From a virus: a DNA stretch of 64,000 bases. Location: the IMG/VR virus record IMGVR_UViG_3300031885_000003, positions 18,854-82,853 of that record; one strand, 5' to 3'. Made by a program: the position numbers and the translations under genes. Positions 17,548 to 64,000 of the stretch are shown here, piece after piece; positions within the stretch are counted from its first letter, which is position 1, and the number at the start of each line of letters is the position of its first letter. A model generated the notes under the pieces. The model was not told the DNA's origin. It saw nothing but the letters and a program-made list of their open reading frames with translations, and ran no database searches.

Positions 17548-17707
17548 GGAGGGAGATTATGTTCGGAATATACAAGGATGGGAAAAAATCAAAACTATGG
17601 TTTTGCACGGCTCCTTTTGGGGCTCGGAAATTCGTTACTCGAAAGAAAGCGGCCGCCTTGGCGCGTCAAGTTGGCGGCAAAGTAGAAAAGATCAAATAAT
17701 CTCATCT
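17548..17707 (+). repeat. Direct repeat copy 1 (copy 2 at 63841-64000, cut by window end)
   Basis: 159/160 identical; G17580 vs A63873. Confidence 0.95.
17559..17699 (+). CDS. 46-aa basic early protein MFGIYKDGKKSKLWFCTAPFGARKF...
   Basis: RBS; duplicated at 63852-63992 (G8R). Confidence 0.75.
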   Translation: MFGIYKDGKKSKLWFCTAPFGARKFVTRKKAAALARQVGGKVEKIK

Positions 17708-17785
17708 CCGCCCCGCGCACGTTGCCCCAGGTGGGGCGACCGCGAGCGGGGTAAGGTAAGGGACCATGGAAACGAAAGGAGCGAT

Positions 17786-18064
17786 ATGGAAACGCGGAAA
17801 TGCCCAAACGTATTATGCCCCGGCACAATGTACCACTCTGACGACATGGAAAACCCGTTTGCCGGGACCGATGATCACACCCCATTTTGGCAGTGCGAGT
17901 TATGCGGGGATTGTCAACCGGAATACACCGCGGCACAGAAACGCCTAATCGAAGAACGGAGGCTAAACTCCCGCTGGGAAAATGCGACTGAGCATGAAAT
18001 GGCGACAACCCCGGAAACCGAGGAATACTCGGACGAACGGTACGACCAGGAGAATCAGGACTAA
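17786..18064 (+). CDS. Zn-ribbon early protein with acidic tail
   Basis: CPNVLC...CELC; AAGGAG RBS. Confidence 0.7.
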   Translation: METRKCPNVLCPGTMYHSDDMENPFAGTDDHTPFWQCELCGDCQPEYTAAQKRLIEERRLNSRWENATEHEMATTPETEEYSDERYDQENQD

Positions 18065-18167
18065 TTCCGCCCCGCACGCTGCCCCAGGCGGGGGATCGAC
18101 GTGGACGCTAACAGCCTATGAGGGCGAGGAGAACGGCATGGAAGAAGGAGCACAGCGATATTACCGG

Positions 18168-18244
18168 TGGGGTGCTCGTTTTTAGGGGGTCAATTGCTAC
18201 TATAGTCTTGCTATCAACGGGGTTAAGGGTGCTCGATTCACAGG
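18168..18244. repeat. 77-bp perfect inverted repeat, copy 1 (copy 2 at 34414-34490)
   Basis: Base-by-base reverse-complement identity. Confidence 0.95.
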
Positions 18245-18344
18245 ATTATGTGGAACGGGAAAACGCATAGGGCGACCGGCGGCGGGATAGGGATAGAGCG
18301 CCACGGGAAACAACGCGCCGGAGAGCGCAAAGGGAGACGTGAAC

Positions 18345-18479
18345 ATGATTAAGCATTGCACACAATGCGGGGAAAAACACGAAGAATTAGAACCCTGTCC
18401 AGAACCAATTCTTAAGAAATGGTTCCCCGGTGTGAAAGGAATCGGGCCGGATGGGAAGCCGTTAAAAGGTATTTGGTAA
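18345..18479 (+). CDS. 44-aa Cys-containing early protein
   Basis: GGGAG RBS after GCGC hairpin; CTQC motif. Confidence 0.55.
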   Translation: MIKHCTQCGEKHEELEPCPEPILKKWFPGVKGIGPDGKPLKGIW

Positions 18480-18720
18480 CAACGCGCCACGGCGCAGAAA
18501 GCCTGAATATGAACCACGCGGCGATAGAAGCGGCTCGGGACCGGGCCCACCACGCGCAATTGCGACACCTGGTCGCCGCCGGCGACATTGCCGATTACCC
18601 GAAATGGTAGAAACGGCTCAAGCGGTTGTTATGCGGGCCAGATGTGGTAGACGACGAAAACGGGAGTCTGCATGCGCGAGTGCGTGCAGCTCTAAAACTG
18701 GTGGATGAAAGGATCGGAGT

Positions 18721-18915
18721 ATGGTGAACACGAAGAAAAAGCAGCTGATGGGCCGGAACTTCTACTTGACGCAGGAGGAGGCGAAGTTCCTCAGCGAGCT
18801 TGGCCGGGAACCCGGCGCGATCAACGGCAACATGTCCGCGGGATTGCGGAAAGCGGTGGAGTACGTCAAAGCCCACATGAAACAGATCCCGCTCGACAAG
18901 GAGGAAGGACCATGA
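18721..18915 (+). CDS. Ribbon-helix-helix (CopG/Arc-like) regulator
   Basis: RNFYLTQEE...LSEL...NMSAGLRKAVE pattern. Confidence 0.65.
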   Translation: MVNTKKKQLMGRNFYLTQEEAKFLSELGREPGAINGNMSAGLRKAVEYVKAHMKQIPLDKEEGP

Positions 18916-19133
18916 GAAACCGAGAAGCAAATTTAGAATGGTTGAACCGGCGCATTGATCATCTCTCTGCGGAGATGTCACGTGCCGTGAAGAATTATGT
19001 CGAAGCGGTCCAATCTCGTGACAAAGAGGGCATCGCAACAAGCGCATGCGAGCATGCCCAGGCGACTGGCCGGTACACCGAGGCCACGCTCATCCGTAGT
19101 TATATCGCCACCGACGCCGTAATTTGTCCGTAG
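18912..19133 (+). CDS. Hypothetical helical protein
   Basis: ATGA coupling to the previous gene. Confidence 0.6.
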   Translation: MRNREANLEWLNRRIDHLSAEMSRAVKNYVEAVQSRDKEGIATSACEHAQATGRYTEATLIRSYIATDAVICP

Positions 19134-19137
19134 CATT

Positions 19138-19175
19138 CGCCCCCGGTTGCAGTCTGGCCGGGGGCGTGCTGTTTT
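19138..19175. terminator. Terminator between the convergent early array and integrase
   Basis: CGCCCCCGG...CCGGGGGCG stem followed by TGCTGTTTT. Confidence 0.65.
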
Positions 19176-20221
19176 CAGGCGTAGGGACGATCTATGTCCG
19201 CGTCCCTGGGCGACAGGTGAGCGTAGATCATCGTGGTCTTGCTATCGGCATGGCCAAGCCATTGAGACACCTTGAACAGGCTGACGCCAGCACTCACCAG
19301 TTGAGACGCGAACGTATGCCGGAGCGTCTTGGGCGTGCACCACGGGACGGCAGCAGCCACGGCGACAGCCTCAAAAGACTTCCTGGGGTCAAAGCGGTAG
19401 CGATCCCGCCCAGGGGCCGCACTTGGGGCGATGATGAAGCCCTGGGCCTGCCTGAACTCGCCCAGGATGGCTTGTAGTTGTTCAGGGAATGGGATTGTGC
19501 GTGGCCGCTTGCCTTTGGGGTCCCACCCGGTAGGCTCATCATCATCTGAGTCGATGCCTACCATGTGGATCAGCTTTTGCTCCCAATCGAACCACTCCCA
19601 CCGGGCCTGTACGATCTCCGCTTTGCGCAACCCGGCATGGATCCCCAAGGCAAAGTACAAAAGCATATCTTGACTATGGGCCTTGGCCGCGTCGAGCACC
19701 GCGGCTACCTGGGCCTTGTCCAACCATTTGACGTGCCGGGCAGGCTCCTCTATGAGCCTTGCGCCGCTGAACGCGTTGGGCCCGGGGATCCAGTGCTGCT
19801 CGACAGCGATACCAAAGAGCGCCTTGAGGCTCTTGATGCAGACGTTGGTGGTCTTGGCCGCTCTGCCGGCCGATTTGAACCTTGCCTTGACCACATCCAG
19901 GTGAGCGATCCCGACGTCGGCCAGCGCGGCGCCGTTACACGCGGCCTTGAGTTTACCCAACGCCCAGAGGTACGAATCCCGCGTGCTCTGGCGATGGTGC
20001 AGGTCAGCCCACGCCCGGTATCGGTCCTCGAGATCCGCCAGGGTGCAGACAGCCGGCGGCGGGGCTTCGACAGGCAGACCCGCGACCAGGAGCGCCTCGA
20101 TCCTTGCCCGCCTTGCCTCCGCTTTAGCGGCATCTTTGGTGTGCAAGCTCGTCCAGACCGTCTTGGCTCCGTCCTGATACCGTAGATACCACGTCTTGCC
20201 CCGCAGATAGAGCGTGCTCAT
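19175..20221 (-). CDS. int: Tyrosine integrase
   Basis: GLRKAEI (R), PKGK, KTLRHTFAS (K for first H of HxxR), LGH, TTMIYAH; N-terminal arm-binding domain. Confidence 0.95.
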   Translation of the reverse strand: MSTLYLRGKTWYLRYQDGAKTVWTSLHTKDAAKAEARRARIEALLVAGLPVEAPPPAVCTLADLEDRYRAWADLHHRQSTRDSYLWALGKLKAACNGAALADVGIAHLDVVKARFKSAGRAAKTTNVCIKSLKALFGIAVEQHWIPGPNAFSGARLIEEPARHVKWLDKAQVAAVLDAAKAHSQDMLLYFALGIHAGLRKAEIVQARWEWFDWEQKLIHMVGIDSDDDEPTGWDPKGKRPRTIPFPEQLQAILGEFRQAQGFIIAPSAAPGRDRYRFDPRKSFEAVAVAAAVPWCTPKTLRHTFASQLVSAGVSLFKVSQWLGHADSKTTMIYAHLSPRDADIDRPYA

Positions 20222-20225
20222 GGCT

Positions 20226-20567
20226 TCACTCCACCCGCGATATCTTATGGCCGGGATCGTGCATACAAAACCTTACGGGCTGCGGTCCCAACACAGGAAA
20301 CTCGAACTGTGGCCGCCACTGGAACTCGTCCCAGACGCGCTTGGGTAGATACGCAAACCCCTGGAGCAGGTCATAGACATGCACCGGCACGCCCATAAAC
20401 GGGGTGTGCAATTCCAACACTTCACACGGCGGCGATTCTTCGGGCGATGAACACTCGGCCCGCAAAGCATCATGCGCCCCTATCCCCATCACCAGCACCA
20501 TCGGCTCCAACTGCCCCTCCATCTCGTTTTCAACCCGCTGCATCATCTCGACAATCTGGTCAATCAT
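20226..20567 (-). CDS. Hypothetical protein between attP and int
   Basis: GGAGGG RBS before MIDQIVEMMQ. Confidence 0.55.
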   Translation of the reverse strand: MIDQIVEMMQRVENEMEGQLEPMVLVMGIGAHDALRAECSSPEESPPCEVLELHTPFMGVPVHVYDLLQGFAYLPKRVWDEFQWRPQFEFPVLGPQPVRFCMHDPGHKISRVE

Positions 20568-20584
20568 GGTGTCCCTCCCTCCGT

Positions 20585-20878
20585 GAGTAGTCACTTTGAG
20601 TAGTCACCTCTCAAAATGCTCTGTTAATGCGACCATGAGGAGTGTATCGTAAATGGTTGGGATTGTCAAGGGTTACGATTGGTGGAGATGAACGGGATCG
20701 AACCGTCGCCCTCATGACTGCCAGTTATATAATACAGAAATGCACAAGTCCAGCAACATCATGTAGTTACATGGTATCACTGGACTTGCGCGGGAACGCT
20801 GCTCTTCGCAGAACACCGCCAAACACCGCCAAAATGGTATCGGGGTAGTCACTTTTGCCGGCTCGGGGTAGTCACTTT
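20585..20878. other. attP: core 20680-20725 = 3' half of tRNA-Ala(GGC) (minus strand), flanked by four GTAGTCAC arm-type repeats
   Basis: Minus strand ACTGGCAGTCATGAGGGCGACGGTTCGATCCCGTTCATCTCCACCA (GGC anticodon loop, T-loop, U70, CCA); arm repeats at 20585, 20598, 20840, 20863. Confidence 0.85.
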
Positions 20879-20880
20879 GT

Positions 20881-21339
20881 TCACAATCCCAGCAGCCCAT
20901 TTAGGATGGCCTTCATCGTTGGCCCGTTCGACTCAAGACACTCATCAGAAGCGGCTTTCTTGTCGTCAAAGTACCAGTCGTAGTTCAAGCCACCTTCCAA
21001 GGACTGAATTACCATACCGTAACCCCCATGGCGAAGGAGTTCTTCACCGAAGTAGTGGTAGTAATAACCGATTGCCAACTCGTATTTCCCATCCACGAGA
21101 TTCTCCACACAAAACGTTTCTCCGGGTTGTAAAGGCTCAGGTAAGATGTTCATACCCTTTGTGGGAACTGGATCAACTGGACCGATGCGGGTAACCGACA
21201 AAGAGTAGATATCATGGTCATAATTGTTGTGCAACGTCAGGCTGTTCGTTCCGTTTGGGTTGGAGTTGGGTGAATCTGGACAGCCCGCCAGGACCGCCAG
21301 AACGAACAGCACTACCGCGTACCGCAATCTCTTGTTCAT
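20881..21339 (-). CDS. Lysogeny-region lipoprotein (possible superinfection exclusion)
   Basis: MNKRLRYAVVLFVLAVLAGCP lipobox; directly downstream of repressor. Confidence 0.7.
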   Translation of the reverse strand: MNKRLRYAVVLFVLAVLAGCPDSPNSNPNGTNSLTLHNNYDHDIYSLSVTRIGPVDPVPTKGMNILPEPLQPGETFCVENLVDGKYELAIGYYYHYFGEELLRHGGYGMVIQSLEGGLNYDWYFDDKKAASDECLESNGPTMKAILNGLLGL

Positions 21340-21350
21340 GGCTTTCTCCT

Positions 21351-21674
21351 TTATTTGAGTTGTTTCCCACAATGGATACAGAACTTCGCCGTTTTTCCCC
21401 GGACACTGAGAACAGTCAACTCGTAGCAAATGGCACACGTCACTTCCCGCAGACCCGATTCTGGCACTTGTGGCTTACCCTCGATCATCGCTTTCAGCTT
21501 CGCAAGGTTTTTTCTCGTCATATCCTTAGTCCCACCACGTTCCCAAGCCCCGTAAGTGTTCATGCTTAACCCAAGGAAATTACTCACATCCATCTGCGAC
21601 AACCCCTGCTCATCACGCCACTGTTTTGCCCGTTCCCTTAATACCCCATCATCTGCCCCGGCCCCTTTACTCAT
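21351..21674 (-). CDS. CI-like XRE repressor with C-terminal CxxC...CxxC zinc ribbon
   Basis: LSQMDVSNFLGLSMNTYGAWERG HTH; divergent from cro. Confidence 0.8.
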   Translation of the reverse strand: MSKGAGADDGVLRERAKQWRDEQGLSQMDVSNFLGLSMNTYGAWERGGTKDMTRKNLAKLKAMIEGKPQVPESGLREVTCAICYELTVLSVRGKTAKFCIHCGKQLK

Positions 21675-21675
21675 T

Positions 21676-21823
21676 TGTCAATCCTCCATATATATCGCGC
21701 AGACTGCTTTTGCGCCATCCGTATAGGATAGTACACCGATAATGCACGTCCTGTCAAGGGGTTGCAGAATTATACACAGACCATATATTTTTCTTGACAA
21801 AACAAGCCACCTGTCTATACACT
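21676..21823. promoter_or_regulatory. Divergent immunity promoters
   Basis: Leftward TTGACA(21757-21752)-18-TACTAT; rightward TTGACA(21794)-18-TACACT. Confidence 0.65.
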
Positions 21824-21848
21824 GGCGGTGCACCAAAAGGAGAGGCCA

Positions 21849-22067
21849 ATGCAGATGGAACGACAGACGACGCCACAACGGGCCGTGTTGGAACGAATGA
21901 TTAACCACAAGGGCTGGACATACACAGAACTTGCGAAACGGGCGGGGTTACATCAGAGCCTCATCGGCAAACTGCTGAGCGGGGAACGGGCGATCACCTT
22001 TCGGACAGCCCGGAAACTGGCCAAAGTATTTAACATGAGTTGGCGTCATTTCTTTTGCGAGGAATAG
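21849..22067 (+). CDS. Cro-like HTH
   Basis: WTYTELAKRAGLHQSLIGKLLSGER. Confidence 0.8.
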   Translation: MQMERQTTPQRAVLERMINHKGWTYTELAKRAGLHQSLIGKLLSGERAITFRTARKLAKVFNMSWRHFFCEE

Positions 22068-22069
22068 CA

Positions 22070-22339
22070 ATGCCTGAAACCTACCTTGGCCCCGCCCAGG
22101 CGGCAAAGTACATGAACATCGGCGTCACCCTGTTTTACCGGTTGCGGAAGGGCGACGCCGCATTCCCCGCGGCTATCCCGCTCGGCCGGTGCCGCCGTTA
22201 TAGCGTCTACGACCTCGACGCCTACATGCAGTCGAAGAAACCAAAACCCGTCACACCCGATCCCGAACTGGAAAAAGAAGCTGCGGACATCATCCGCAGC
22301 CATAGGAAACCACAAGAGGAGAACCACGCTCATGCCTAA
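22070..22339 (+). CDS. Excisionase/AlpA-like winged-helix protein
   Basis: YLGPAQAAKYMNIGVTLFYRL...FPAAIPLGR..RY. Confidence 0.75.
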   Translation: MPETYLGPAQAAKYMNIGVTLFYRLRKGDAAFPAAIPLGRCRRYSVYDLDAYMQSKKPKPVTPDPELEKEAADIIRSHRKPQEENHAHA

Positions 22340-22583
22340 GAAACGCAAACCGCGAGCGCAGGCGCCGACAGCAGCACCAAAGCCAACCGCTGCCGTGCGC
22401 GTCCCGAAAGCCGTCCTCGACGGCCTGATGGCTCTGCAGTCGACCCCAACGAACACCCGCAACATCAACCAGGCGATCCAGATGCTCCGGCGTCTCGGAC
22501 ATCCGCAGGCGCAGCTATGGGTGTCACAGCACCCGAGCGAATACTACGAGGGGGTCGAGGTCGGCTTCGAGGCGGACGAATGA
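22332..22583 (+). CDS. Hypothetical protein (DUF5049-like)
   Basis: AVLDGL...TN...W...HPSEYYEGVEVGF pattern recalled for DUF5049. Confidence 0.5.
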   Translation: MPKKRKPRAQAPTAAPKPTAAVRVPKAVLDGLMALQSTPTNTRNINQAIQMLRRLGHPQAQLWVSQHPSEYYEGVEVGFEADE

Positions 22584-23086
22584 GCCGTAAGACGTGCACA
22601 CAATGCGGGGAGGAGAAACACCACGTCTCGTTTTACGCGGGGAGCAGCGTATGCCGGGCCTGTCAGAGCGAGCCGAGGCCGAAGATCAACGATGGCCGGG
22701 CACCCACTTTGGCAGAAGCGGAAGAGAAGGAGCGGCCGGCGCCGCGTCCCATGCCCGTGCCCGTTTCTGCGCCAGTGAACCCGCCGGAAAAACTGCCAGC
22801 GTTAGAACTGGCATCGTCGCTGGAATACCGGTTTTGCAAAGACGAAGAGCCAGAGCCGGAAACCGAAAAGGGTCCAGAGACCGACATAGACGGGGGACGG
22901 CTGATCGTGAAAGCCGAGACGTCGGTGGAACTGCTTGCGGCCGTCCTGATCGCCGTGTTGGACGTCTGCCCGGACGCCCGGTGCAAGTCTCTATATGGAG
23001 AGTTAGTAATCACGGCGGGGAGACAAAGGGAGAGTAACCAACGAAAGGAGAACACGACTGATGAACTGGAAGATTTTAGGGGTTGA
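22580..23086 (+). CDS. Zn-finger hypothetical protein
   Basis: CTQC...CRAC; ATGA coupling. Confidence 0.6.
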   Translation: MSRKTCTQCGEEKHHVSFYAGSSVCRACQSEPRPKINDGRAPTLAEAEEKERPAPRPMPVPVSAPVNPPEKLPALELASSLEYRFCKDEEPEPETEKGPETDIDGGRLIVKAETSVELLAAVLIAVLDVCPDARCKSLYGELVITAGRQRESNQRKENTTDELEDFRG

Positions 23087-23483
23087 CGACAAGTTGCCCG
23101 AGTTGGATGGGCCGATTCAATTGCAGTTGGAACATGTCAACGGCACGCTCAGGGAAGTCGCTCTGGCCTGCAACTACGACGTGGTTCTGAAAATCATCCC
23201 GGGGCCATACGGCGGCCTCCAATTGCTGGTGCCACCGGATCCGAAACCAATCTACGAGATGCGTGGCGAGCTGTGCGGTTTCCGGGCCAGGCCCATAGAG
23301 TTCGACGACGAAGCCAAGGCCCGCGAAAAGTACCTCTGGCACGTCTCACAAGTCGGCCCCTCGCCACATAAGATCCAACTGGTCAAAGTGACTCGGGTGG
23401 GCGACGAGAAGGAGCGTGAAGAAGTGCTAGCAGAGGATATTGTGAGCGTAGCGGAGGCACACGCCGACCCCGACAACTTCTAA
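23061..23483 (+). CDS. Hypothetical protein
   Basis: AAGGAG RBS; 140 aa. Confidence 0.65.
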   Translation: MNWKILGVDDKLPELDGPIQLQLEHVNGTLREVALACNYDVVLKIIPGPYGGLQLLVPPDPKPIYEMRGELCGFRARPIEFDDEAKAREKYLWHVSQVGPSPHKIQLVKVTRVGDEKEREEVLAEDIVSVAEAHADPDNF

Positions 23484-23495
23484 CTTCTCTGATCT

Positions 23496-23984
23496 CGGTG
23501 CGCCGCCAGGCAGGTTCGCAGCCCGCCCTCACGCCCCCTCTGATCCCCATCAGAGACACACGGCGGCGCACCGCTTGAAAGTTGAAGATTTTAGGTGTGC
23601 TGTGGCCGAGGAATGCGTGACGGGCGCGAGAAATCGCGTTGGTAAGCGACGACGGCTTACGGTCGGCTCGACGATGGGGTAAGGAACAGACCCTTAGAGC
23701 AGCAAGTAGGTCAGCCGGGCGCGGGTGATTTTACCCGTAGTAACAGTACAGGCCGAGATAACGCCAGACAGCCACAGCACACCGATTTTCCAGCGGCGGT
23801 AAATACTCGCGAGCGCCGCTGGTTCTCCAGTGCGCGGCGTTTCAATGGTCTCGCAACCCCCAAGGGCGCCGCGCACTGGTCTCCACAACGGGAAGGGGGT
23901 GGTTTATGAAGTAAAGACTAACTTCTCCCATTTAACGATGCAAGCAGCACGGGGGCGGGTCAGACAGACGCCGGCCCGCCCCCG
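23496..23984 (+). ncRNA. Cluster of six consecutive structured RNA elements
   Basis: Closing stems 23496/23573 (12 bp), 23594/23783 (13 bp, multibranch), 23790/23822, 23827/23879 (13 bp), ~23890/23929, 23950/23984; no credible ORF. Confidence 0.6.
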
Positions 23985-24566
23985 CAAAGAAAGGGGACTA
24001 TGGGATCAAAAGCGATTTTCGCCGGCACAATCAACCCGCCACGCAACGGTGTGTTCAAGACACTATAGGCCGTGCCCGATAGTTGGGAGGCCGAGTGCAT
24101 GACGCTCCAATCGTCGTTGCGCGACGCGCTGGCGGCGGAGAAGGACGCGATCATCGCCAGACTGAGGAACGACCTGGAGAAGGCACGGAGGTTGGAACAA
24201 CGTTTATGAATAAAAAAGATCCTGATGAGACGATGAGGCAAATTCGGTCAGAGCAACGCGAACGCCTCCGGGACCGGTTCGCAATGGCGGCGCTGACAGG
24301 GTTGCCTACAACCGAACAGACGCCAGAGCATCTTGCAAAAACAGCCTACAGAATAGCCGACGCCATGCTGGCCGAGCGGGAGAAGACACCATGTTCCTCT
24401 CCTTCCTAAACCTATTCCGCCGCCCGCGTTGCGCCGACTGCCAGCGCAAAATTAAGCGGGGGCAAGTAAGCATCAGGGTCGCAAATCTTGACGATTTTCT
24501 CGGGTATAGGTGGGTAAAACTCTGTGCGTCCTGCTACTGGGAAGCGACCAAAGGATTCACTGACTG

Positions 24567-24797
24567 ATGAAACGCCAACTGTCGCTTGTGAAGATCAAGA
24601 CGATGGGCGATGCCCTCGCCTACTGCCGGATGCAACGGGGAATCAGTCAGGAGCGACTATTTGAACGTTCAGGCGTACCGCAATCTACGATCAGCAGATT
24701 CGAGCGAGACTTCGACGTGCGGGTGTCAACGGTATTGAAACTTTGCAAAGCCATGGGTGTGCCGTTGAGCGAACTCGCGGCGATGGCAAGGGTGTAG
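24567..24797 (+). CDS. XRE-family HTH protein
   Basis: ISQERLFERSGVPQSTISRFER. Confidence 0.8.
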   Translation: MKRQLSLVKIKTMGDALAYCRMQRGISQERLFERSGVPQSTISRFERDFDVRVSTVLKLCKAMGVPLSELAAMARV

Positions 24798-24799
24798 TG

Positions 24800-25681
24800 A
24801 TGAAAGAAACATTTCAAAATATTAAGTTGAGCAAACTCCGACTCGCCGCCGCAAACCAAGCCGACGTCATCCTTGAAGAATATGCCCTGGGCGGATGGAT
24901 CCTGACGCTGCGGCAACTCTACTACCAGTTCGTCGCGCGCGGCCTACTGGAGAATACCGAGCGCAATTACAAGTGGCTCGGATCCGTCGTCAATGACGGC
25001 AGACTCGCGGGCCTTCTCGACTGGGACCACATAACCGACCGAACTCGCACCTGTCAAGTCGTCAGCACATGGGACTCTCCACAGGACATTATCCAAGCCT
25101 CAATCGACTGCTACCGTATTGACCTCTGGAAAAACCAGCTATATCGGATTGAAGTGTGGGTAGAAAAAGACGCTTTGATTGACGTCGTTGGCCGTGCCGC
25201 AAACTTGGCTCAACTCCCGTACTTTTCCTGTCGCGGATACTGTAGCCAGAGCGCCATGTATGGGGCTGCAAAACGCCTTGAGAAATACATAGAAGCCGAT
25301 CAAATGCCCTACATTCTCTACTTCGGCGACCACGATCCAAGTGGAATCGACATGGCGCGAGACATCCAGGTCCGCCTCAATCTGTTCTTGGACAATCCAC
25401 GGATGCACTTTGACCGTCTCGCGCTGACGATGGAGCAAATCGACCAGTACTCACCGCCGCCAAACCCGGCAAAACTCACCGACTCCCGGTGTCGCGGATA
25501 TATGGATGAATATGGCGAGGAGAGTTGGGAGCTTGATGCGCTTGAGCCTAACGTGATTGTCGAACTCATAACGAACAAGATGGCCGGCCTCAAAGACCAT
25601 ACGGCATGGAAGAAAATGACGGCCGTGCAAAAACGGGATAAAGACACGCTCAAAAACCTGTTGGGGAAAATCAGCGACTAA
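24800..25681 (+). CDS. Spo11/Topo VI-A-like protein (winged helix + TOPRIM)
   Basis: TLRQLYY (cf. Spo11 TxRDxYY catalytic Tyr), VWVEKDAL, GDHDPSG, WELDAL. Confidence 0.75.
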   Translation: MKETFQNIKLSKLRLAAANQADVILEEYALGGWILTLRQLYYQFVARGLLENTERNYKWLGSVVNDGRLAGLLDWDHITDRTRTCQVVSTWDSPQDIIQASIDCYRIDLWKNQLYRIEVWVEKDALIDVVGRAANLAQLPYFSCRGYCSQSAMYGAAKRLEKYIEADQMPYILYFGDHDPSGIDMARDIQVRLNLFLDNPRMHFDRLALTMEQIDQYSPPPNPAKLTDSRCRGYMDEYGEESWELDALEPNVIVELITNKMAGLKDHTAWKKMTAVQKRDKDTLKNLLGKISD

Positions 25682-25985
25682 TGCTCCGTAGCCTATGGGG
25701 TGAGAATTACGAAATGCAAAAAACTGAAGCCCAGGTCGACAAGTGGATGGCCCTCTATGAACCGCGCTATCGGGCGCTCTGCAAACAGGCCAATGCCCTC
25801 GACGACCTCATGTGTGACCGTGCGGTCATACCGCCAGACATCCTGAAAGCGGCTGTCGAGGAACTGGCAGACCTTAAATCCACATGGGAGGGGATTGTCG
25901 GCCCAGTGAACCCGCCCTATGAAATGCTGATCGCCGAGATGCTGTTGGCTGACATCCAAGAAGAGTTTAAGGTCAGGGCGGGGAT

Positions 25986-26942
25986 ATGATTAAATATCGT
26001 TCTACCCCTGTAAAAATCTGGAACGATCTTGCCTTTTGTTCCCTATCTGATGATGCCCAACTTGTCTATTTTTTTGTCCGCACGCATCCCAACATGGCCG
26101 CGTGCGGAGCCATGCGAGCAACATTATCGGGACTCGCACAAGAAAAACACTGGGGTGAAAAGAGATTTACAGCAGCCTTCACGGAGCTTACAAAGGTGGT
26201 TGAGTACCGAGTTGATGAAGTACGCGGTTGTGTGGCCGTGATGGATTTGTTAGAAACGAACAGACCTATAAATGCAAAGTCCATACAGGGTTATATCAAC
26301 TCCTTTGACACGATACCTGATTGTAAGTTGAAACTAGAACTAATGCGACGGCATGCAAAACAATACCCACAGTTAGAAGAAAAGTTAGCTAACTTTTCCC
26401 TAACTTTCTCCGAACTTTTAGAGGGCCAACAAGAACAAGAACAAGAACAAGAACAAGAACCCCCTATTTCCCCCAACGAAAAACTCCAAAAAGTTCTCAC
26501 CGAACACCCAGGCGCAGAAGTCGTTCACGTCAAACTTCGCAGCAAGATTCTCGAAGCACATCCGAATGCCAAACTGCCAGAGCCGACCCGAGAACCCAAA
26601 AAGTATCTCGATGGTTTGATGACGATTGTGAACCTCATTAAGCGGGACCGCTTCACGTCAACAGACCTTGAGGCTCTTTGGTGGGTTTTTGAGTCAGACG
26701 ACGACGAGGCGATCTTCTGGCGACAACAACTATGCGGAGTGCCGGGCCTCAGAAGGGTGTGCAAGAACGGCATGACCAAATTCGCGTCGATTCACGAGCG
26801 ATGGGGTGACGCAGTGGCGGGAAAAGGGATAGACCCTAGCGGCAAACACCAATTTACGTCCCGAGAACTTGCTGGATTCGAGGCCGAGGAACGGTTACAG
26901 GCGGAACGGAAACAGCGGGAGGGTACAAAATGCCAGTCATAG
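25986..26942 (+). CDS. Replication initiator-like protein
   Basis: KYR...KIWND..F..LSDDAQL N-terminus, QEQEQEQE linker; directly upstream of DnaB. Confidence 0.75.
   Translation: MIKYRSTPVKIWNDLAFCSLSDDAQLVYFFVRTHPNMAACGAMRATLSGLAQEKHWGEKRFTAAFTELTKVVEYRVDEVRGCVAVMDLLETNRPINAKSIQGYINSFDTIPDCKLKLELMRRHAKQYPQLEEKLANFSLTFSELLEGQQEQEQEQEQEPPISPNEKLQKVLTEHPGAEVVHVKLRSKILEAHPNAKLPEPTREPKKYLDGLMTIVNLIKRDRFTSTDLEALWWVFESDDDEAIFWRQQLCGVPGLRRVCKNGMTKFASIHERWGDAVAGKGIDPSGKHQFTSRELAGFEAEERLQAERKQREGTKCQS
26371..26460. other. Probable replication origin inside the initiator gene
   Basis: Perfect 20-bp palindrome GAAAAGTTAGCTAACTTTTC (26379-26398), further CTAACTTT repeats, (CAAGAA)n tract. Confidence 0.6.
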
Positions 26943-28366
26943 CAGACGGCATACCCCCCCACAATCTCGAAGCTGAACAGGCCGTCATTGGGGCGATCCT
27001 ACTGGACAACGACGCGGTATCGGACGTGGTAAACATCATCGGTCGGTCGAATGAAATGTTCTATTCCGCCACACACCAAGCCATTTATTCGGCCATGCTT
27101 GCCATCATCGACAAAGGGCGGCCGGTAGACGGCATCACCCTTGCCGAACAACTGCGGGAAGACGGCAAGTACGAGCTGGGCGGCGGCGTCACGTACATCG
27201 GTGAGATTGTCGATGCCGTACCCACTGCGGCCAATGTGGCCTACTATGCGGAAATCGTCCGCCACTGCCATATCCGGCGAGAAGTCCATCGAGTCTGCAC
27301 TCGCCTTGCAGCCGAATCCCTTGAGGCTGATTCCTCATGCGACTCAGATTGGCTCGACAAAGCCCACAGCGGGCTCCTGGCGCTTTTTGAACATCGGGAT
27401 CGGCATTATCCCCTACCCGCGATTGAAATCGTCTCAGGCGCCCTTGCAGAGATTCAGGCGGTGGTTGACGGGAAACCGCGAAACGAAGGATGGACTACAG
27501 GGTATACCAGTTTGGATGCAGTACACGGCGGGTTTGTGCCGAATCTCTACATCTATGCCAGCCGACCGTCGGTAGGCAAGACGACCTTGGCCGCAAACAT
27601 CGCCTGCCACGTTGCGGCAGGGGGCCACCCGACCCTTTTCTTCGCCCTCGAGATGTCGGACGCCCAAATGATGCGGAAGATCCTGATGTTCCGGGCCGGG
27701 GTGAATTGGGGGCAAGTTCGCGCGGGATTTAACGCACGAAGCCAACTGGACAAAGTGCGGTTTATCGCCCCGGGCATCGGCCGCTGGCCTCTGTGGATTG
27801 ATGACACACCAAACCTGACGCCGAACGCCCTCCGGGCGAAAGTGCGAAAACATATCCATCAGCACGGCCCAACACTCGTCATCATCGACTATCTGCAACT
27901 CATGGATATCCCGCAGGCACGAGGCCAGAACCGATATGAAGCTCTAGGCGGTGTTTCGCGCACACTGAAAAACCTGAGCGGCGAACTCGAATGCCCCTTC
28001 ATCGGCATATCACAACTCGGCAGGGACGCGGATGGCGTTGATCCCAAAATATCTCACCTGCGGGAATCGGGCAATTTCGAGCAGGACGCGGATGTGATCA
28101 TCCTTCTGTCCCGCTACCTCAAACCCGAGATAACTGAACTCCACAAAGCAGGTAGATATCTTAACGTCGATTTCGACCGGATCGTGAAGGTTCACATTGC
28201 GAAAAACCGTGAAGGTGAGACGGGAGTAGTGCAGATGATTTTCGATAAGTCGGTACAACAGTTCCGAGAACCCGGACAGCCTGAAATAGAATGCGACGCA
28301 GAAACGGGCGCCTCGATTGCGCCCGATCCACAAGCGAATCCAGAAACAGATGAGATACCATTCTGA
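26930..28366 (+). CDS. dnaB: Replicative DNA helicase
   Basis: PPHNLEAEQAVIGAIL, SRPSVGKTT, IIDYLQL, SQL, LRESGNFEQDAD, KNREG. Confidence 0.95.
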   Translation: MPVIADGIPPHNLEAEQAVIGAILLDNDAVSDVVNIIGRSNEMFYSATHQAIYSAMLAIIDKGRPVDGITLAEQLREDGKYELGGGVTYIGEIVDAVPTAANVAYYAEIVRHCHIRREVHRVCTRLAAESLEADSSCDSDWLDKAHSGLLALFEHRDRHYPLPAIEIVSGALAEIQAVVDGKPRNEGWTTGYTSLDAVHGGFVPNLYIYASRPSVGKTTLAANIACHVAAGGHPTLFFALEMSDAQMMRKILMFRAGVNWGQVRAGFNARSQLDKVRFIAPGIGRWPLWIDDTPNLTPNALRAKVRKHIHQHGPTLVIIDYLQLMDIPQARGQNRYEALGGVSRTLKNLSGELECPFIGISQLGRDADGVDPKISHLRESGNFEQDADVIILLSRYLKPEITELHKAGRYLNVDFDRIVKVHIAKNREGETGVVQMIFDKSVQQFREPGQPEIECDAETGASIAPDPQANPETDEIPF

Positions 28367-28393
28367 ACCGGCGCAAGAGGAGGAGTTGTTCTG

Positions 28394-28849
28394 ATGACGA
28401 GAGGCTATTCGGCGATCGGCCTGTACCAGCCCAAGACGCCCGCAAACATCGGCGGCGTTCTGCGGGCAGCGGACTGTTACGGCGCGGCGCTGGTGGCCGT
28501 GCAGGGGCAGCGGTATAAGCGGATCGGAACGGACACGCTGGCGAGTTACCGCCACATCCCCTTGTTGAACGTGCCGGACCTGCACGAGTGTGTGCCCTAT
28601 GACTGCATCCCCATTGCGATTGAGAGAGCCGATGGTGCAAAACCGATTCAAGATTTCACCCATCCCGAGCGGGCATTCTACGTGTTCGGCCCGGAAGACG
28701 GGAGCGTGCCGAAGGCTGTACAGGAATGGTGCAAGTGCGTGGTCTATATCCCAACGTGGCATTGTATGAACCTAGCGGCAACGGTGAACGTGGTGCTGTT
28801 TGACCGCGCCATGAAGCGCGGGGAATGGTCAAAAGGGGGTGACGCCTGA
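28394..28849 (+). CDS. SpoU/TrmH-family (SPOUT) RNA methyltransferase
   Basis: PANIGGVLRAA, YVFGPEDG, YIP...MNLAA..VVLFD motifs. Confidence 0.88.
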   Translation: MTRGYSAIGLYQPKTPANIGGVLRAADCYGAALVAVQGQRYKRIGTDTLASYRHIPLLNVPDLHECVPYDCIPIAIERADGAKPIQDFTHPERAFYVFGPEDGSVPKAVQEWCKCVVYIPTWHCMNLAATVNVVLFDRAMKRGEWSKGGDA

Positions 28850-29235
28850 TGTCCGCGATCCCCGAACTCAACGCGGTGCAGATCGCGGGTACGCTCGCCA
28901 GGGCGCCCAAAGCGAAGAAATCGAAGCAGGGGTTTGACGTTGCCGAACTAACGTTGGTCAACAAACGCACCAGGACGCGCGGCGACACCGAGACGGTCAC
29001 GCTCACCTACGTCATCGTGGAGTTCTGGGACAGGCCAGCGACGAAGTTGATCAAGCTGGACCTGAAGGCGGGGACGGGGATCATGATCGAGGGACTGTTG
29101 TGGTTGAGGGTTTGGACCAACAAAGTAACTGGAAAAGGCGAAAATCGCCTGATCGTCATGGGAAACACGTTTAGAGTGCTCGACACGCCAGACGCGGTGT
29201 ACGAGCCAGAGGAGCCTGACCAATGCCAACCGTAA
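28849..29235 (+). CDS. ssb: Single-stranded DNA-binding protein (divergent)
   Basis: LNAVQIAGTLARAP...W...G..IEG.L OB-fold pattern. Confidence 0.7.
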   Translation: MSAIPELNAVQIAGTLARAPKAKKSKQGFDVAELTLVNKRTRTRGDTETVTLTYVIVEFWDRPATKLIKLDLKAGTGIMIEGLLWLRVWTNKVTGKGENRLIVMGNTFRVLDTPDAVYEPEEPDQCQP

Positions 29236-29720
29236 TCGTATCGCTACCCCCAGGCGCACCGATAACCTTCTTCGTGCCGGGAAGGCCAGCAACAGCCGGG
29301 AGCAAACATGGATTCGCCCTCAAGAAGGGCGGCCAGTACACCGGCAAAGTCGTTATGGTAAACGACAACAAGCGGTACACGGACTGGCGGGCACTTGTGA
29401 AACACATCGCTTCACAGGCATATCAAGGTCCGCTACTCGATGGGCCGCTGTTTCTCAAGGCCCAATTTACGTTGCAGCGCCCAAAGTCTCATTACTACCA
29501 GACCAAAGCGCGGCTCGGTCAACTCAAAGACGACGCGCCACATTGGGTCACATCGAAGCCGGACTGCTCGAAGATCATCAGGGCGCTGGAAGACTCTCTG
29601 ACTGGCGTGATCTGGACAGATGACTCCCGCGTAGTCCGTCTGGTAACGGAGAAGGTCTACGGAGAGAAGCCGAGAACGGACGTGCAGATTTACGAACTGC
29701 GCAGGCGGGGACTGGCATGA
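29223..29720 (+). CDS. rusA: RusA Holliday junction resolvase
   Basis: KPDCSKIIRALEDSLTGVIWTDDSRV. Confidence 0.88.
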   Translation: MPTVIVSLPPGAPITFFVPGRPATAGSKHGFALKKGGQYTGKVVMVNDNKRYTDWRALVKHIASQAYQGPLLDGPLFLKAQFTLQRPKSHYYQTKARLGQLKDDAPHWVTSKPDCSKIIRALEDSLTGVIWTDDSRVVRLVTEKVYGEKPRTDVQIYELRRRGLA

Positions 29721-29983
29721 GCGACAGCGGTGCGCGCGCGAGGGCATGGGCAACGAGGCGGCGGCTATACGGCGCGGCTGGCCATCGTGGATCGTATTCG
29801 GGTCATGGCGCACTCCGTTGTCGTGATTGTGAACGCATGATCGGTGTAATTGTGCGGCTGTACGCGGAAGGCGTATTGAGCGAAGGACAGGCGGCGAAAG
29901 CAACCGGGCGTGATCGCGTCTGGCTGCGAATAGCGAGGGACGAAATAATAAATGACCACGGCGTGTGCCGCGAGGAGGGATAA
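29717..29983 (+). CDS. Hypothetical HTH-like protein (paralogue of 35219-35491)
   Basis: RAWATRRRLYG...LYAEG.LSEGQAAKATG. Confidence 0.65.
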   Translation: MSDSGARARAWATRRRLYGAAGHRGSYSGHGALRCRDCERMIGVIVRLYAEGVLSEGQAAKATGRDRVWLRIARDEIINDHGVCREEG

Positions 29984-32900: not shown

Positions 32901-33392
32901 GGCTGAATTTTGACCGCCGGTGGCAGAAACGGAAACAGGCGCTCGCGCAGGCGGAAGGAGAGGCACCGTGAAGATCAAGCGGTACTGCACATGTGGCGGA
33001 TACCAGACCGGAACAATCGTGCGGATGCCCCGGTTACAGGCCCAAGCGGATGCAATCTGGGCGGAACATACCGGACCCGGCCATGCCCCGTGTGACGCCA
33101 AGACCGCGACAAATGCGAGGCGTAACCAGGAGCGCCGCGCCGAGAGGGCGGAAGGAGAGGCGACGTGAATCAGGAACGTATAGATAATCTGTTAAGCGGT
33201 ATCCGAAACGTCGCGTTAGCTCTTAGGAAGACAATCGAGAATCCCGAACCAGGCGACTCCGTTAGAAAGTTGAGCGAGGAAGAATGGATCGAACTTTATA
33301 GACTCGTTGGGCTTCTTCAAAAAAACGTGCAACAGATTCAGCAGGAACAGGGGTTGCCATTATTGATGGTCGAAACGGAGAAAGGGACGTGA
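29983..33392 (+). other. Run of small, translationally coupled accessory genes (includes paralogues 31720-31896 and 32364-32528, and a HigA-like HTH at 32525-32971)
   Basis: ATGA/GTGA overlaps and AAGGAG RBSs; ITPEIAAALGRAFGTCAERWLN resembles the HigA/VapI HTH. Confidence 0.65.
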
Positions 33393-33721
33393 TGAGCATG
33401 AATGAACTTGCACACCAGATTCATGAATACGCCAAGGATAAAGGCTGGTACGACACGCACCCGAGCGTCGGTGAAATGTTGGCAAATGTCCACGCCGAAG
33501 TTAGCGAGGCGCTGGAAGAGTGGCGCAACGACCACATGGGCAAGTATTTTGGAGAAGGCCACGATTGTAAGCCGTGCGGTTTTCCCTCAGAGATGGCCGA
33601 CATCATTATCCGCGTGCTGGACATCTGCGCGTCGTTCGACATCGACATCGACGCGGAAGTGTCGGCTAAGATGCAATACAACCAGACGCGCCCTTACCGC
33701 CACGGGGGCAAACTAGCATGA
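33389..33721 (+). CDS. MazG-like nucleotide pyrophosphohydrolase
   Basis: HAEVSEALEE...SEMADIIIRVLD...KMQYN..RPYRHGGK. Confidence 0.85.
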   Translation: MMSMNELAHQIHEYAKDKGWYDTHPSVGEMLANVHAEVSEALEEWRNDHMGKYFGEGHDCKPCGFPSEMADIIIRVLDICASFDIDIDAEVSAKMQYNQTRPYRHGGKLA

Positions 33722-34182
33722 AACCCATCGGCGTAGTCCAATCCGCCCCGGCTGTGCGCGGCCTACTCGACGGCGGGACCGTGCTGTGGGTGCCAGCTAC
33801 AAAAGATCCATCATGTACGCGGATCTTTTGGGTTGAGAATGAAACGACATTCCCCAATGGCAAATACACGGGGTGGGTCAAGGATTGCGGTGCGCCTTTC
33901 TTGATTCCCATTAAACCGCCCGTTCAGTCCGGCGATGTGGTATGGATCAAAGAGACGTGGTGCGAAATACCGTGGGAAGACGGTATGGGCAAACGATCTA
34001 CACGGGTTCTGTATCGGGCGATAGAACCGGAACTATTTGACCGCACTGTCGGCGATAAATGGCGTTCCCCCGTCACCATGCCCCACTGGGCCTCGCGTTT
34101 CGAGCGCATCGTCACGGCTATCGGCATGGAGCGGCGGGACGGCATGTGGCAGTGGCGGATCGAGACGGAGATAACACCATGA
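33718..34182 (+). CDS. PUA/ASCH-like phage protein
   Basis: GDVVWIKETW...WRSPVTMPHWASR. Confidence 0.6.
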   Translation: MKPIGVVQSAPAVRGLLDGGTVLWVPATKDPSCTRIFWVENETTFPNGKYTGWVKDCGAPFLIPIKPPVQSGDVVWIKETWCEIPWEDGMGKRSTRVLYRAIEPELFDRTVGDKWRSPVTMPHWASRFERIVTAIGMERRDGMWQWRIETEITP

Positions 34183-52038: not shown

Positions 52039-52056
52039 ATGTAAAGGAGAAACACC

Positions 52057-54348: not shown

Positions 54349-54350
54349 AA

Positions 54351-59100: not shown

Positions 59101-59112
59101 AAGGACACAATC

Positions 59113-60977: not shown

Positions 60978-62239
60978 CAAACCCATACAAAAGCAACCCT
61001 GCATACGGCAAAGACCTGTGCGAGCTCATGCGGCGGATCAACGTCTTGGCGACCGTTAATGTCGGGGATTATTGGGGGACATACGGGTATAGCTTGAAAT
61101 GGGATCAAGCCGATCCCGGTGGGATTGCCATTGATTCATCGGGATACGTTTATGTATTAGATGGGAGCGGATACACCGTCAGAAAATTTACCGCAACGGG
61201 AACATTCATAACTTCATGGGATACGCTCTATCAACCAACGTCTATTGCCATTGATTCATCAGATTATATTTACGTCGGGGCAGGGAACTATATAAGAAAA
61301 TACAATATTGCTGGAGCACTTCAAACATCTTGGGGTGGCTCAGGCACAGGTAACGGTAAGTTCAACGGCGTTTACGGAATTGTGGTCGGCGGCGGTTACG
61401 TATACGCCTCGGATCAAATAAATAAACGAGTCCAGATTTTTAATACGTCGGGGGTTTATCAGAATCAATTTAGTATCGTGCACAGCGGTGACGGGGTCTA
61501 TGATTATCCCTACGGAATAGCATTAGAGGGCGACTTTCTATTCGTCATTGTTGAGGGCAAAGTCCGCAAGTTTACGACTACCGGGGGATACCTAACAACG
61601 TGGGCCGCAGGGACTGGCGATTGGCATATTTGTAGTTTAGACGGGCTGATCTTTTGCTCTTTCCGGGCCGATGATGTGATAAATAAGTATGATTTAAACG
61701 GTGTGCCGCTTGAAACTATCGGGTCTTCGGGGAGTGGTAACGGACAACTGGATGGCCCATATGGGATCATTGCTATAGCCGATGGTAGCATTTACGTTAC
61801 TGAACAAGACAATGATAGGGTGCAAAAGTTTATCCCCGCCGTGGGATCGACCATTGAGCCATTGATGGCCCCTATCGAGTTCTATGCCTATTCCCCCGCC
61901 ACCAAGGCCAGCATCGGCGACTATCCCGATGACGATGCGCTAATCGCGGTCCAGTTCGTCACGCGCAACCTCACCCAGATGCGCACGGCTATCGCCGCCA
62001 TCCTCGCTCAGGGCTACTACTTAAACCCGGCGACCGGGGAACCATACGTATATTCAGGCATGGTCGAGGACAATCTCTATTATTGCGCTATGGGGGACCG
62101 AACCAAATACGGGGCCACGGGCGGGCCGCGCTTCAGCTGGACACGCACCGAAGCGCAGATGAAAAATACCCCATTGTATGATATTGACATTGGCGAGATT
62201 TACGAGTGCGTAGTCACTCTGGAGAATGCGGATACATGA
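60974..62239 (+). CDS. NHL-repeat beta-propeller tail protein
   Basis: PGGIAIDSSGYVYV, GSGTGNGKFNG, GSGNGQLDGPYGI...YVTEQDNDRVQKF repeats. Confidence 0.85.
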   Translation: MTNPYKSNPAYGKDLCELMRRINVLATVNVGDYWGTYGYSLKWDQADPGGIAIDSSGYVYVLDGSGYTVRKFTATGTFITSWDTLYQPTSIAIDSSDYIYVGAGNYIRKYNIAGALQTSWGGSGTGNGKFNGVYGIVVGGGYVYASDQINKRVQIFNTSGVYQNQFSIVHSGDGVYDYPYGIALEGDFLFVIVEGKVRKFTTTGGYLTTWAAGTGDWHICSLDGLIFCSFRADDVINKYDLNGVPLETIGSSGSGNGQLDGPYGIIAIADGSIYVTEQDNDRVQKFIPAVGSTIEPLMAPIEFYAYSPATKASIGDYPDDDALIAVQFVTRNLTQMRTAIAAILAQGYYLNPATGEPYVYSGMVEDNLYYCAMGDRTKYGATGGPRFSWTRTEAQMKNTPLYDIDIGEIYECVVTLENADT

Positions 62240-62520
62240 CTAATCATTTTTTGGATGTGCTTTTTGGTGCGGCGATTTCAGTTGCATTGGGGATAGGTGG
62301 TTGGCTCTTCAAATGGACCCGGGGTGCGGACACGACGCTGCAAGATCATACAACGAGGCTCTGTTCGATGGAAGATCGACATAACGATTGTGCGGCGAAA
62401 CGCGAGCGAACTGAGGCTGAAATTTGGGATCGGTTCAATAGCAGGATGGACGCGATGACTGCGCAACTTACTGAAATTGCACACAGTATCGGGCGGCTGG
62501 AGGGAAGCGCACAGCGATGA
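62236..62520 (+). CDS. Single-TM coiled-coil lysis-associated protein
   Basis: N-terminal TM helix, ends IGRLEG. Confidence 0.6.
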   Translation: MTNHFLDVLFGAAISVALGIGGWLFKWTRGADTTLQDHTTRLCSMEDRHNDCAAKRERTEAEIWDRFNSRMDAMTAQLTEIAHSIGRLEGSAQR

Positions 62521-63023
62521 GAACGCCCGCCTACTATCGCACATTGTGGGATAGCATCGAGATTTTACCGGACTGGCAGGAGCGCGTAGTCGCCGCCGCC
62601 GCGTTGGTGCGGAAAGGAGCCGTTCGATACTCGGGATTCCCAGCGCCATGGGAGTTCGTCGGCGTGATTCATTTCATGGAATGCGCCTGCAATTTTAATA
62701 GGCAGATCCTGAACGGCGAGCCGTGGAATCTGGAAACCACCTTACACCCCGAGGGTAAAGGCCCGTGGCGCGACTGGCAGCATAGCACGGACGAAGCATT
62801 ACGGCACCGGGCATTGCGCACGTTGGGCGATATCGAGGCGTGGAACGGCATGGGCTATTGCAACCGCGGTATGAACTCACCCTATCTATGGCGTGGATCA
62901 AACCATGGCGAGGGCGTCGGGAAATACATTGCGGATGGGCGTTACGATCCGCACGCAGAATCAAAACAAGTCGGTGCGGCGGTGATCCTGTTCGCGCTCA
63001 ATTGGTGGAAACCCGTGGCATGA
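62517..63023 (+). CDS. Endolysin, lysozyme-like (COG5526-type)
   Basis: PWEFVGVIHFME, EAWNGMGY, NSPYLW, GKYIADGRYDP...KQVG. Confidence 0.8.
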   Translation: MRTPAYYRTLWDSIEILPDWQERVVAAAALVRKGAVRYSGFPAPWEFVGVIHFMECACNFNRQILNGEPWNLETTLHPEGKGPWRDWQHSTDEALRHRALRTLGDIEAWNGMGYCNRGMNSPYLWRGSNHGEGVGKYIADGRYDPHAESKQVGAAVILFALNWWKPVA

Positions 63024-63424
63024 CGCGCTGGCAGATTGTAAAACTTGTGTGGAAAACCTGGCGCAACAAGCGCCGGCTGGAAAAGGAGATTAGGAAAATG
63101 AAACCGTTTTGGCAATCCAAGACTACTCAGAATCAGGCCGGGGTCGCCGTGTTTATCTTGATGATCGTCGGCGTGATTCGCACCATGAAACCCGATCTTG
63201 TGCCCTGGGGACAATCAGATGATGAAAGCTTACTCAACAATATCGTTACGTTAAGCGCAGCCGCGGGCGGGATTTTTGTCTTTCTATCTCGAATCGTTGC
63301 GCGATTGCGCGGGCATACGAGCGGTCTATCCGAAGTTGAACTGGAAGCCGCTAAGGCAGCGGCACAGACAGCTTTTTTGATAGAGATGCACGAAACGGCA
63401 GTAGCAAATCGAAAGGCACCATGA
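63020..63424 (+). CDS. Holin-like protein (possible second start at 63098)
   Basis: KPFWQSKT followed by two TM helices. Confidence 0.6.
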   Translation: MTRWQIVKLVWKTWRNKRRLEKEIRKMKPFWQSKTTQNQAGVAVFILMIVGVIRTMKPDLVPWGQSDDESLLNNIVTLSAAAGGIFVFLSRIVARLRGHTSGLSEVELEAAKAAAQTAFLIEMHETAVANRKAP

Positions 63425-63601
63425 CGTTCGGCCAATCTAAACAACCCGTCGCGCCAGACCCCGCCGCGTTAGGGCGACAGGAGGCCCAGCGCGGGGCCGC
63501 GTTTGACGCGCAGCACGCGCGGGAGCGGGCTAAGGGTATAAACATCAAGTTCCCGCTGCTCGCCCTGTTGAGGCGGCTGCGGCATAAATAGTTTTCCCCA
63601 C

Positions 63602-63677
63602 GTCGCCGGGCCTATCCCTCCCCCGGCGACTTCCTCCCCAGCCCGCTCCGGATAGCCCACCGGGGCGGGCACCTTTT
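63602..63677 (+). terminator. Tandem hairpins/terminator ending the late operon
   Basis: GTCGCCGGG/CCCGGCGAC and GCCCGCTCCGG/CCGGGGCGGGC + CCTTTT. Confidence 0.65.
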
Positions 63678-63767
63678 ACACAAAATCATTCTACGATATC
63701 CCTAATTATTTTGAGGGATAGTACGTAACTCCTTGCAATTAAACGATATACAACGTTAAAAAACTTC

Positions 63768-63796
63768 TTGACATGCGAGGAATTATAGGTTATAAT
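63768..63796 (+). promoter_or_regulatory. Consensus sigma70 early promoter of phage B
   Basis: TTGACA-17nt-TATAAT. Confidence 0.9.
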
Positions 63797-63840
63797 ATAT
63801 GTAGTTGAAGAGAAACAAACGAGGGCGCCCGCGAGGGCAA

Positions 63841-64000
63841 GGAGGGAGATTATGTTCGGAATATACAAGGATAGGAAAAAATCAAAACTATGGTTTTGCA
63901 CGGCTCCTTTTGGGGCTCGGAAATTCGTTACTCGAAAGAAAGCGGCCGCCTTGGCGCGTCAAGTTGGCGGCAAAGTAGAAAAGATCAAATAATCTCATCT
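63841..64000 (+). repeat. Direct repeat copy 2
   Basis: Matches 17548-17707. Confidence 0.95.
63852..63992 (+). CDS. Second copy of the 46-aa early protein
   Basis: Identical to 17559-17699 except G8R. Confidence 0.75.
   Translation: MFGIYKDRKKSKLWFCTAPFGARKFVTRKKAAALARQVGGKVEKIK

Follow-up and report, generated by a model that had tools for sequence, protein, structure and literature searches.

An 82.9-kb viral metagenome record with two virion modules around one integrase, attP and replication module is most likely an assembly concatenation of two temperate phages

Here we describe IMG/VR record IMGVR_UViG_3300031885_000003, a viral contig of 82,853 bp, of which the stretch of 64,000 nucleotides from contig position 18854 to 82853 was analysed as the window; positions are window coordinates unless they are marked as contig. 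The window holds a podovirus-type packaging and head module (phage A), a lysogeny and replication module (S) and a complete siphovirus packaging, head and tail module (phage B), and a direct repeat brackets S and B together. We consider it likely that the record is an assembly concatenation of two phage genomes and not one molecule, and our confidence in such a concatenation is high once it is taken to include a variant in which the two genomes have only part of S in common. The join itself is most likely an artefact of a known kind. What survives is real biology: mosaic module sharing, one attP in a tRNA-Ala(GGC) gene, and a tail-fibre domain common to both phages.

A repeat search places the direct repeat at 17548-17707 and again at 63841-64000, as 160 nt that are 99% identical and lie 46,293 bp apart from start to start, and the sequence upstream of the repeat differs between the two copies. 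A preliminary description of this DNA, made from its letters alone, had reported a repeat of at least 160 bp with this spacing, with differing upstream contexts and with one single-nucleotide difference followed by 127 identical bases, and alignment bears this out. Gapped BLAST extends the copies to 17532-17707 and 63826-64000 (176 and 175 nt, 98.3% identity, E about 1e-83), a match for which chance can, on the alignment, be regarded as ruled out. In the extended repeat the substitution and the 127 identical bases stand as described, but the substitution is no longer the only difference. The copies differ at three sites, all in the left 49 nt: a base in a hairpin loop, a 1-nt insertion or deletion, and the G/A difference at 17580/63873 that directly precedes the identical run, so that the final 127 nt of both copies are the same. 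The repeat spans a leader and an entire 46-aa gene (17559-17699 and 63852-63992), residue 8 of which is Gly in copy 1 and Arg in copy 2. Its left edge is formed by a leader composed of a GCCC-GNGA-GGGC hairpin and a ribosome-binding site.

Copy 1 is internal (contig 36385-36560, 36.4 kb from the contig start), copy 2 reaches position 64000, which is the end of the contig, and IMG/VR classes the 82,853-bp record as linear. The sequence beyond 64000, to which the preliminary description had looked for a way of telling a cointegrate from a circular overrun, does not exist. In a self-comparison of the whole record, the last 127 nt of the contig (63874-64000) equal 17581-17707 exactly, with a mismatch at the next base upstream. 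The first 127 nt of the contig, which lie outside the window, equal 31806-31932 exactly, with the first mismatch at base 128. The two contig ends are dissimilar to one another, and each pairs with a separate internal site. Two independent end-to-internal overlaps of exactly 127 nt are the mark that assembly on a de Bruijn graph leaves at k = 127, and the metagenome assembly recipe of the Joint Genome Institute (JGI) runs metaSPAdes with '-k 33,55,77,99,127 --meta', the final k being 127 (PMC7171226). An assembler join over the 127 identical bases was one of the two explanations that had been offered for the repeat, and it is favoured by the second exact 127-nt overlap at the other contig end together with this recipe.

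The overlaps would be explained by a theta-shaped assembly graph in which two vertices, V1 and V2, are joined by three edges: A (36.3 kb), S (14.1 kb between the vertices) and B (31.9 kb). On such a graph, metaSPAdes would have followed the path V2-A-V1-S-V2-B-V1 and halted on its second meeting with V1, and because of that halt the direct repeat would come to stand 46,293 bp apart. Underlying the graph would be two circular, or circularly permuted, temperate genomes, S+A of 50,658 bp and S+B of 46,293 bp, both present in the same sediment sample, whose identical or near-identical S modules collapsed into one copy. The computed length of the S+B circle, 46,293 bp, is exactly the spacing of the repeat. 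S occurs once in the contig (14.3 kb with the vertices counted), and it is a plausible inference that both genomes carry it in full and that both circles stand for viable phages. In the artefact known from metaSPAdes with a final k of 127, a de Bruijn path runs through a repeat-collapsed module and leaves overlaps of length k at the contig ends. This record is like it in having exact 127-nt overlaps with an adjoining mismatch at both ends, a module present once, and unequal depths. It is unlike the usual form, in which the overlap runs end to end and a single circle results, since here each end overlaps a separate internal site, which gives the theta graph.

The gene content fits the same arrangement. 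Integrase, attP, helicase loader, DnaB-like helicase, SSB and RusA were found only in S, with none among the scanned A-specific and B-specific open reading frames (ORFs), and each structural module therefore needs a module of the S type. Just outside both vertices A and B are homologous to one another: the first 417 nt of the contig match 31806-32222 at 92.6% identity by self-BLAST, which includes the A and B versions of the 143-aa gene at V2 past the vertex; beyond 417 nt there are patches of 84-89% in a phrog_874 gene; and before V1, 48 nt are homologous. Because of this homology A and B would be natural alternative continuations of the same operons at both vertices. The exchange points, as judged from the gene map, appear to lie at gene starts or leader sequences. 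Further away, the two phages have in common a 182-aa tail-fibre domain (74% amino-acid identity, E 4e-90), carried in inverted orientation, with 80% nucleotide identity over the region. The domain is probably receptor-binding, which suggests that both phages use the same host receptor, and the single attP and the common fibre domain together argue for one host. Several points of the preliminary description are borne out here: the two sets of TerS, TerL, portal and major capsid protein (on the minus strand in A, on the plus strand in B), the intact attP flanked by phage DNA, and the sharing of a near-identical cassette in a common host. The last of these was underestimated, the common element being plausibly as large as the whole 14.3-kb integrase, attP and replication module and not just the gene of about 160 bp.

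Three sediment-metagenome runs, here called X1, X2 and X3, carry the stretch 12581-22580, with sampled-word fractions of 0.99, 0.58 and 0.34, respectively. The comparison of depth on the two sides of the repeat that the preliminary description had proposed reveals a step among the Logan contigs of X1 (A 25-50, S 23-33, B 9.6), which weighs against a physical cointegrate. The 13.4-kb contig of the A structural genes has a depth of 50.1, the left branch of A (placed at 31933-32000 as differing letters) 44.5, and the right arm of A (15711-17577) 25.4; the S contigs stand at 23.2, 23.9, 27.8, 32.1 and 32.6, and the B-specific contig 32062-34443 at 9.64. The A:B ratio is 2.6 to 5.2, S is not twice as deep as A, and the equimolar relation A = B = S/2 is not seen; by these contig means in X1, the presumed source, A and B are unequal in abundance. 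The contig of the A right arm ends at 17577, just before the G/A site, as expected at a branch. X2 has nothing over 30808-34799 and the cover in X3 is patchy, but with depths of 2 to 6 in play such gaps are not counted as absence.

The A side of the junction is found outside this record as well. The only related metagenome contig found, Ga0315294_10232054 (1,813 bp, with a JGI-style name), contains the core of V1 and aligns to 16017-16197 (94.5%), 16355-16499 (78%) and 17525-18064 (92%), with other sequence between. In X2, which comes from a different study, a Logan contig of 1,979 nt connects 15571-16142 with 17533 and onward. Because of these two contigs we take the order of A-side gene array, V1 gene and start of S to exist in related strains and not to be an invention of the assembler.

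Several points weigh against a plain concatenation of two complete circles. The depths are one mean per Logan contig and not mapped reads, and X1 is only the presumed source; the final k of 127 is ascribed to this record from the general JGI recipe and not from the record's own metadata; and no independent contig was found that runs from the B end by way of V1 into S. The depth of S (23-33) is lower than that of the A structural genes (50), so there is no simple balance of S = A + B, and left S, at about 23, has nearly the depth of the A right arm by itself (25.4). Depths so unbalanced imply at least one further variant genome, and B may be without the left 6 kb of S. Contigs with foreign sequence on their left join at 23153, 27173 and 30577. 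From the unbalanced depths, the variant contigs and these foreign joins, we therefore take the sample to hold a swarm of mosaic relatives with at least three genome types. Part of this could be accounted for if the A type alone carried S, or at the least the left 6 kb in which the integrase, attP and immunity genes lie, a sub-case of the concatenation of separate genomes that we regard as rather unlikely. B would then have the V1 region, the right (replication) part of S, V2 and its own left arm on another contig, and the 46,293-bp circle would not be a true genome. In X1, left S (18215-23639) has depths of 23.2-23.9, which fit the A right arm (25.4) and not A plus B (35); the depth climbs to 27.8 and then to about 32 rightward in S; variant contigs at 23609-23971 have depths of 9.6-11.3, near that of B; and a contig with unrelated left sequence joins at 23153 in both X1 and X3. 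However, a step of 23 versus 32 between Logan contigs may be noise or the work of further variants, in the bin that takes in V1 and the opening 450 nt of S the depth is 39.3, and no alternative left arm was recovered.

The other explanation that had been offered for the repeat, a Campbell-type cointegrate formed by homologous recombination within S, belongs with tandem integration of both phages at one tRNA-Ala attB, since either would place A, S and B on one molecule. We think such linkage improbable. A tandem array would have the layout host-attL-...A-V1-Sleft-att-Sright-V2-B-V1-...-attR-host, with which the order of the contig is compatible, and a single attP and integrase for both phages would ease tandem double lysogeny, which is established for phages with a common att site; contigs with the host tRNA-Ala occur in the same runs. 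Physical linkage as the only form in the sample would need A and B to be equal and S to be twice as deep, whereas the A-specific contigs of X1 are 2.6 to 5 times as deep as the B-specific one, and neither the 1:1 stoichiometry nor any attL or attR junction to the host was seen. The exact 127-nt overlaps at both ends are moreover fully explained without it, and a cointegrate circle of about 97 kb would presumably be unpackageable by either capsid type. A circular-genome overrun, with the whole contig as one genome, has next to no chance of being right. An end overlap of 127 exact terminal bases is what circular JGI contigs usually have, but here copy 1 is internal, the contig ends do not match one another, the record is classed as linear, and there are two packaging and head sets. 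For the same reasons (an internal copy 1 and a linear record) phage B does not stand in the record as a complete circular genome with a terminal overlap. We therefore keep to the concatenation of two genomes, whose predicted parts are collected in Table 1.

Table 1. Graph elements and principal genes of the record (window coordinates unless marked as contig)
Feature	Position	Strand	Description and evidence
Edge A	contig 128-36433 (36,306 nt); window part 1-17580	-	structural operon; PHROG, Pfam and PDB matches, ORF map
Tail fibre or tail protein, phage A	1919-3670	-	phrog_17312; 182-aa domain in common with phage B 57640-59100
Major capsid protein, phage A	4572-5894	-	Pfam SU10_MCP, 39 bits (cut-off 24.1); PDB 9in6, VP1 major capsid, E 1e-16
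Portal, phage A	8730-10751	-	phrog_156; Pfam SU10_portal below cut-off; PDB 8zkk, 'portal gp5' of VP1, E 2e-47
TerL, phage A	10764-12383	-	phrog_38, E 2e-51
TerS, phage A	14582-15085	-	phrog_2538, E 6e-11
Repeat copy 1, imperfect left part	17532-17580	+	hairpin and ribosome-binding-site leader, first codons of 46-aa gene; alignment
V1, 127-nt graph vertex	17581-17707	+	inside 46-aa gene 17559-17699; exact match to last 127 nt of contig
Edge S, interior	17708-31805 (14,098 nt)	+	lysogeny and replication module; PHROG matches, graph logic
Tyrosine integrase	19175-20221	-	phrog_1, E 8e-55
attP core	20679-20725	-	3' 47 nt of host tRNA-Ala(GGC) gene; host-contig overlay and ARAGORN
Replication initiator or helicase loader	25986-26942	+	phrog_1701/3171
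DnaB-like helicase	26930-28366	+	phrog_19, E 5e-94
V2, 127-nt graph vertex	31806-31932	+	covers start of 143-aa gene; exact match to first 127 nt of contig
Edge B	31933-63873 (31,941 nt)	+	further early genes, then complete siphovirus packaging/head/tail module
TerS, phage B	41607-42095	+	phrog_309, E 6e-39
TerL, phage B	42067-43326	+	phrog_3717, E 5e-61
Portal, phage B	43370-44872	+	phrog_104, E 4e-70
Major head protein, phage B	47888-48865	+	phrog_10, E 8e-46
Major tail protein, phage B	52057-52980	+	
Tape measure, phage B	54351-56894	+	phrog_8462 and 12 further families, mostly tape-measure; marker of long tails
Tail protein with fibre domain common to phage A, phage B	57640-59100	+	protein comparison
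Repeat copy 2	63826-64000	+	last 127 nt (63874-64000) are V1 again; contig end

The integrase of S adjoins an attP core that matches the 3′ terminus of a tRNA gene exactly, as in temperate phages that integrate into tRNA genes, and the core is flanked by phage DNA left and right. In all three runs, host-like contigs overlay only this core within the window, with loose ends on both sides and a spike in depth of 39-61, and the core joined to a host loose end gives a tRNA-Ala(GGC) by ARAGORN. Host contigs with an unoccupied tRNA-Ala site are present in all three sediment runs. The reconstructed 76-nt tRNA-Ala(GGC) has no exact match in GTDB representative genomes. In addition to the replication genes of Table 1, S encodes an SSB-like protein, a RusA-like resolvase and regulators. 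In its ORF-poor part, at 23609-23971, the minor-variant contigs of X1, at a depth of 9.6-11.3 where the main form has about 28, differ by indels and replaced stretches, and they could represent the module in its B-type form.

Phage A has a continuous structural operon of about 27 kb on the minus strand, from TerS at 15085 down to contig 7169. In X1 the contig of this operon is twice as deep as the A right arm (50 versus 25), with a contig break at 15736-15798, a pattern that points to another genome variant in which this virion module goes with a different early arm. No match to a tape measure, tube or sheath was found among the A proteins, many of which have no match at all, and these include a 1,737-aa ORF (contig 7916-13129, minus strand) at the distal end of the operon that has no PHROG, Pfam or PDB sequence match. 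This ORF may encode a tail component of great length or else a protein that is internal to the virion or ejected from it, and the podovirus label for phage A, whose capsid and portal matches point to the SU10 or VP1 type, is conditional on its not being a tape measure. On the plus strand phage A has accessory early genes of its own, for an exonuclease, a phrog_874 protein and a phrog_3657 protein.

Between the A structural operon and V1 lies an array of small plus-strand genes (15084-17531). In Ga0315294_10232054 the stretch 16197-17525 of this array is swapped for mostly unrelated sequence (183-1119 of that contig), while the flanks are kept at 92-95%, and the array therefore has, on this comparison, the look of a hot spot for cassette exchange. 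The array also has a direct repeat of about 78 nt (87%) at 17181-17258 and 17708-17784, upstream of the 141-aa ORF 17106-17531 in the one case and directly after the V1 gene in the other, as a leader-like or terminator-like element that recurs. Scans of the small ORFs that immediately precede the two copies of the long repeat (15084-17531 and 62206-63424) gave no Pfam or PHROG match of any kind, and hence no lysis gene for either phage.

Phage B reads as a siphovirus, having both a tape measure and a major tail protein, with no match to a sheath among the scanned ORFs; it also has a head morphogenesis protein. The early genes specific to B encode a MazG-like pyrophosphatase, two phrog_874 paralogues and a ParB or methylase-like protein. 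Local direct repeats lie at gene junctions of this early region, at 31708-31882/32349-32523 (74%) and 35169-35226/35438-35495 (83%), and are consistent with duplicated small-gene cassettes. A perfect inverted repeat of 77 nt (82 nt at 98%) links the start of S, at 18168-18244, with the B early region, at 34414-34490, across 16.2 kb. Its length is also among the k values of metaSPAdes, and Logan contigs (k = 31) end at both copies. Its RNA fold is unremarkable (z-score -0.24) and the ORFs that contain it are unrelated, and for these reasons it was rejected as a cause of the join; it could be a mediator of inversion or a further exchange point.

With S or with A as the query, megablast retrieved no phage from INPHARED, and IMG/VR had no match for the A-side and B-side 46-mers upstream of V1, for the cores of V1 and V2, or for a 27-mer from the loose end at 23153. 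Among protein seeds, neither TerS of A nor an NHL-repeat protein of B retrieved relatives from IMG/VR, GTDB genomes yielded none for TerL of A, and the portal of B has relatives at no more than 41% identity, which are uninformative on the junctions. These searches with selected sequences and proteins thus turned up no close relatives in INPHARED, IMG/VR or GTDB representatives.

The finding matters for quality control, since IMG/VR lists one 82.9-kb virus with 94% completeness where there are most likely two concatenated genomes of about 50.7 kb and about 46.3 kb, and statistics of gene content, taxonomy or host drawn from the concatenated record would mislead. JGI-derived viral contigs can be screened for this kind of record by asking whether each end matches a separate internal site by exactly k bases. 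In the improbable case that A, S and B are physically linked in part of the population, the record would be a captured intermediate of module exchange between morphotypes. As for the biology, lambdoid temperate phages of differing tail type, such as the podovirus P22 and the siphoviruses lambda and ES18, are known to have early, lysogeny and replication modules in common. The two phages described here are like them in that a podovirus-type and a siphovirus-type module each stand beside an integrase, attP and replication module of one kind, and in that fibre domains are exchanged; they are unlike them in having no megablast match in INPHARED, and in that the structural operon of S+A opposes its early genes. 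What remains once the join is set aside is a clean but conventional case of phage mosaicism, between podovirus-type and siphovirus-type temperate phages of one sediment.

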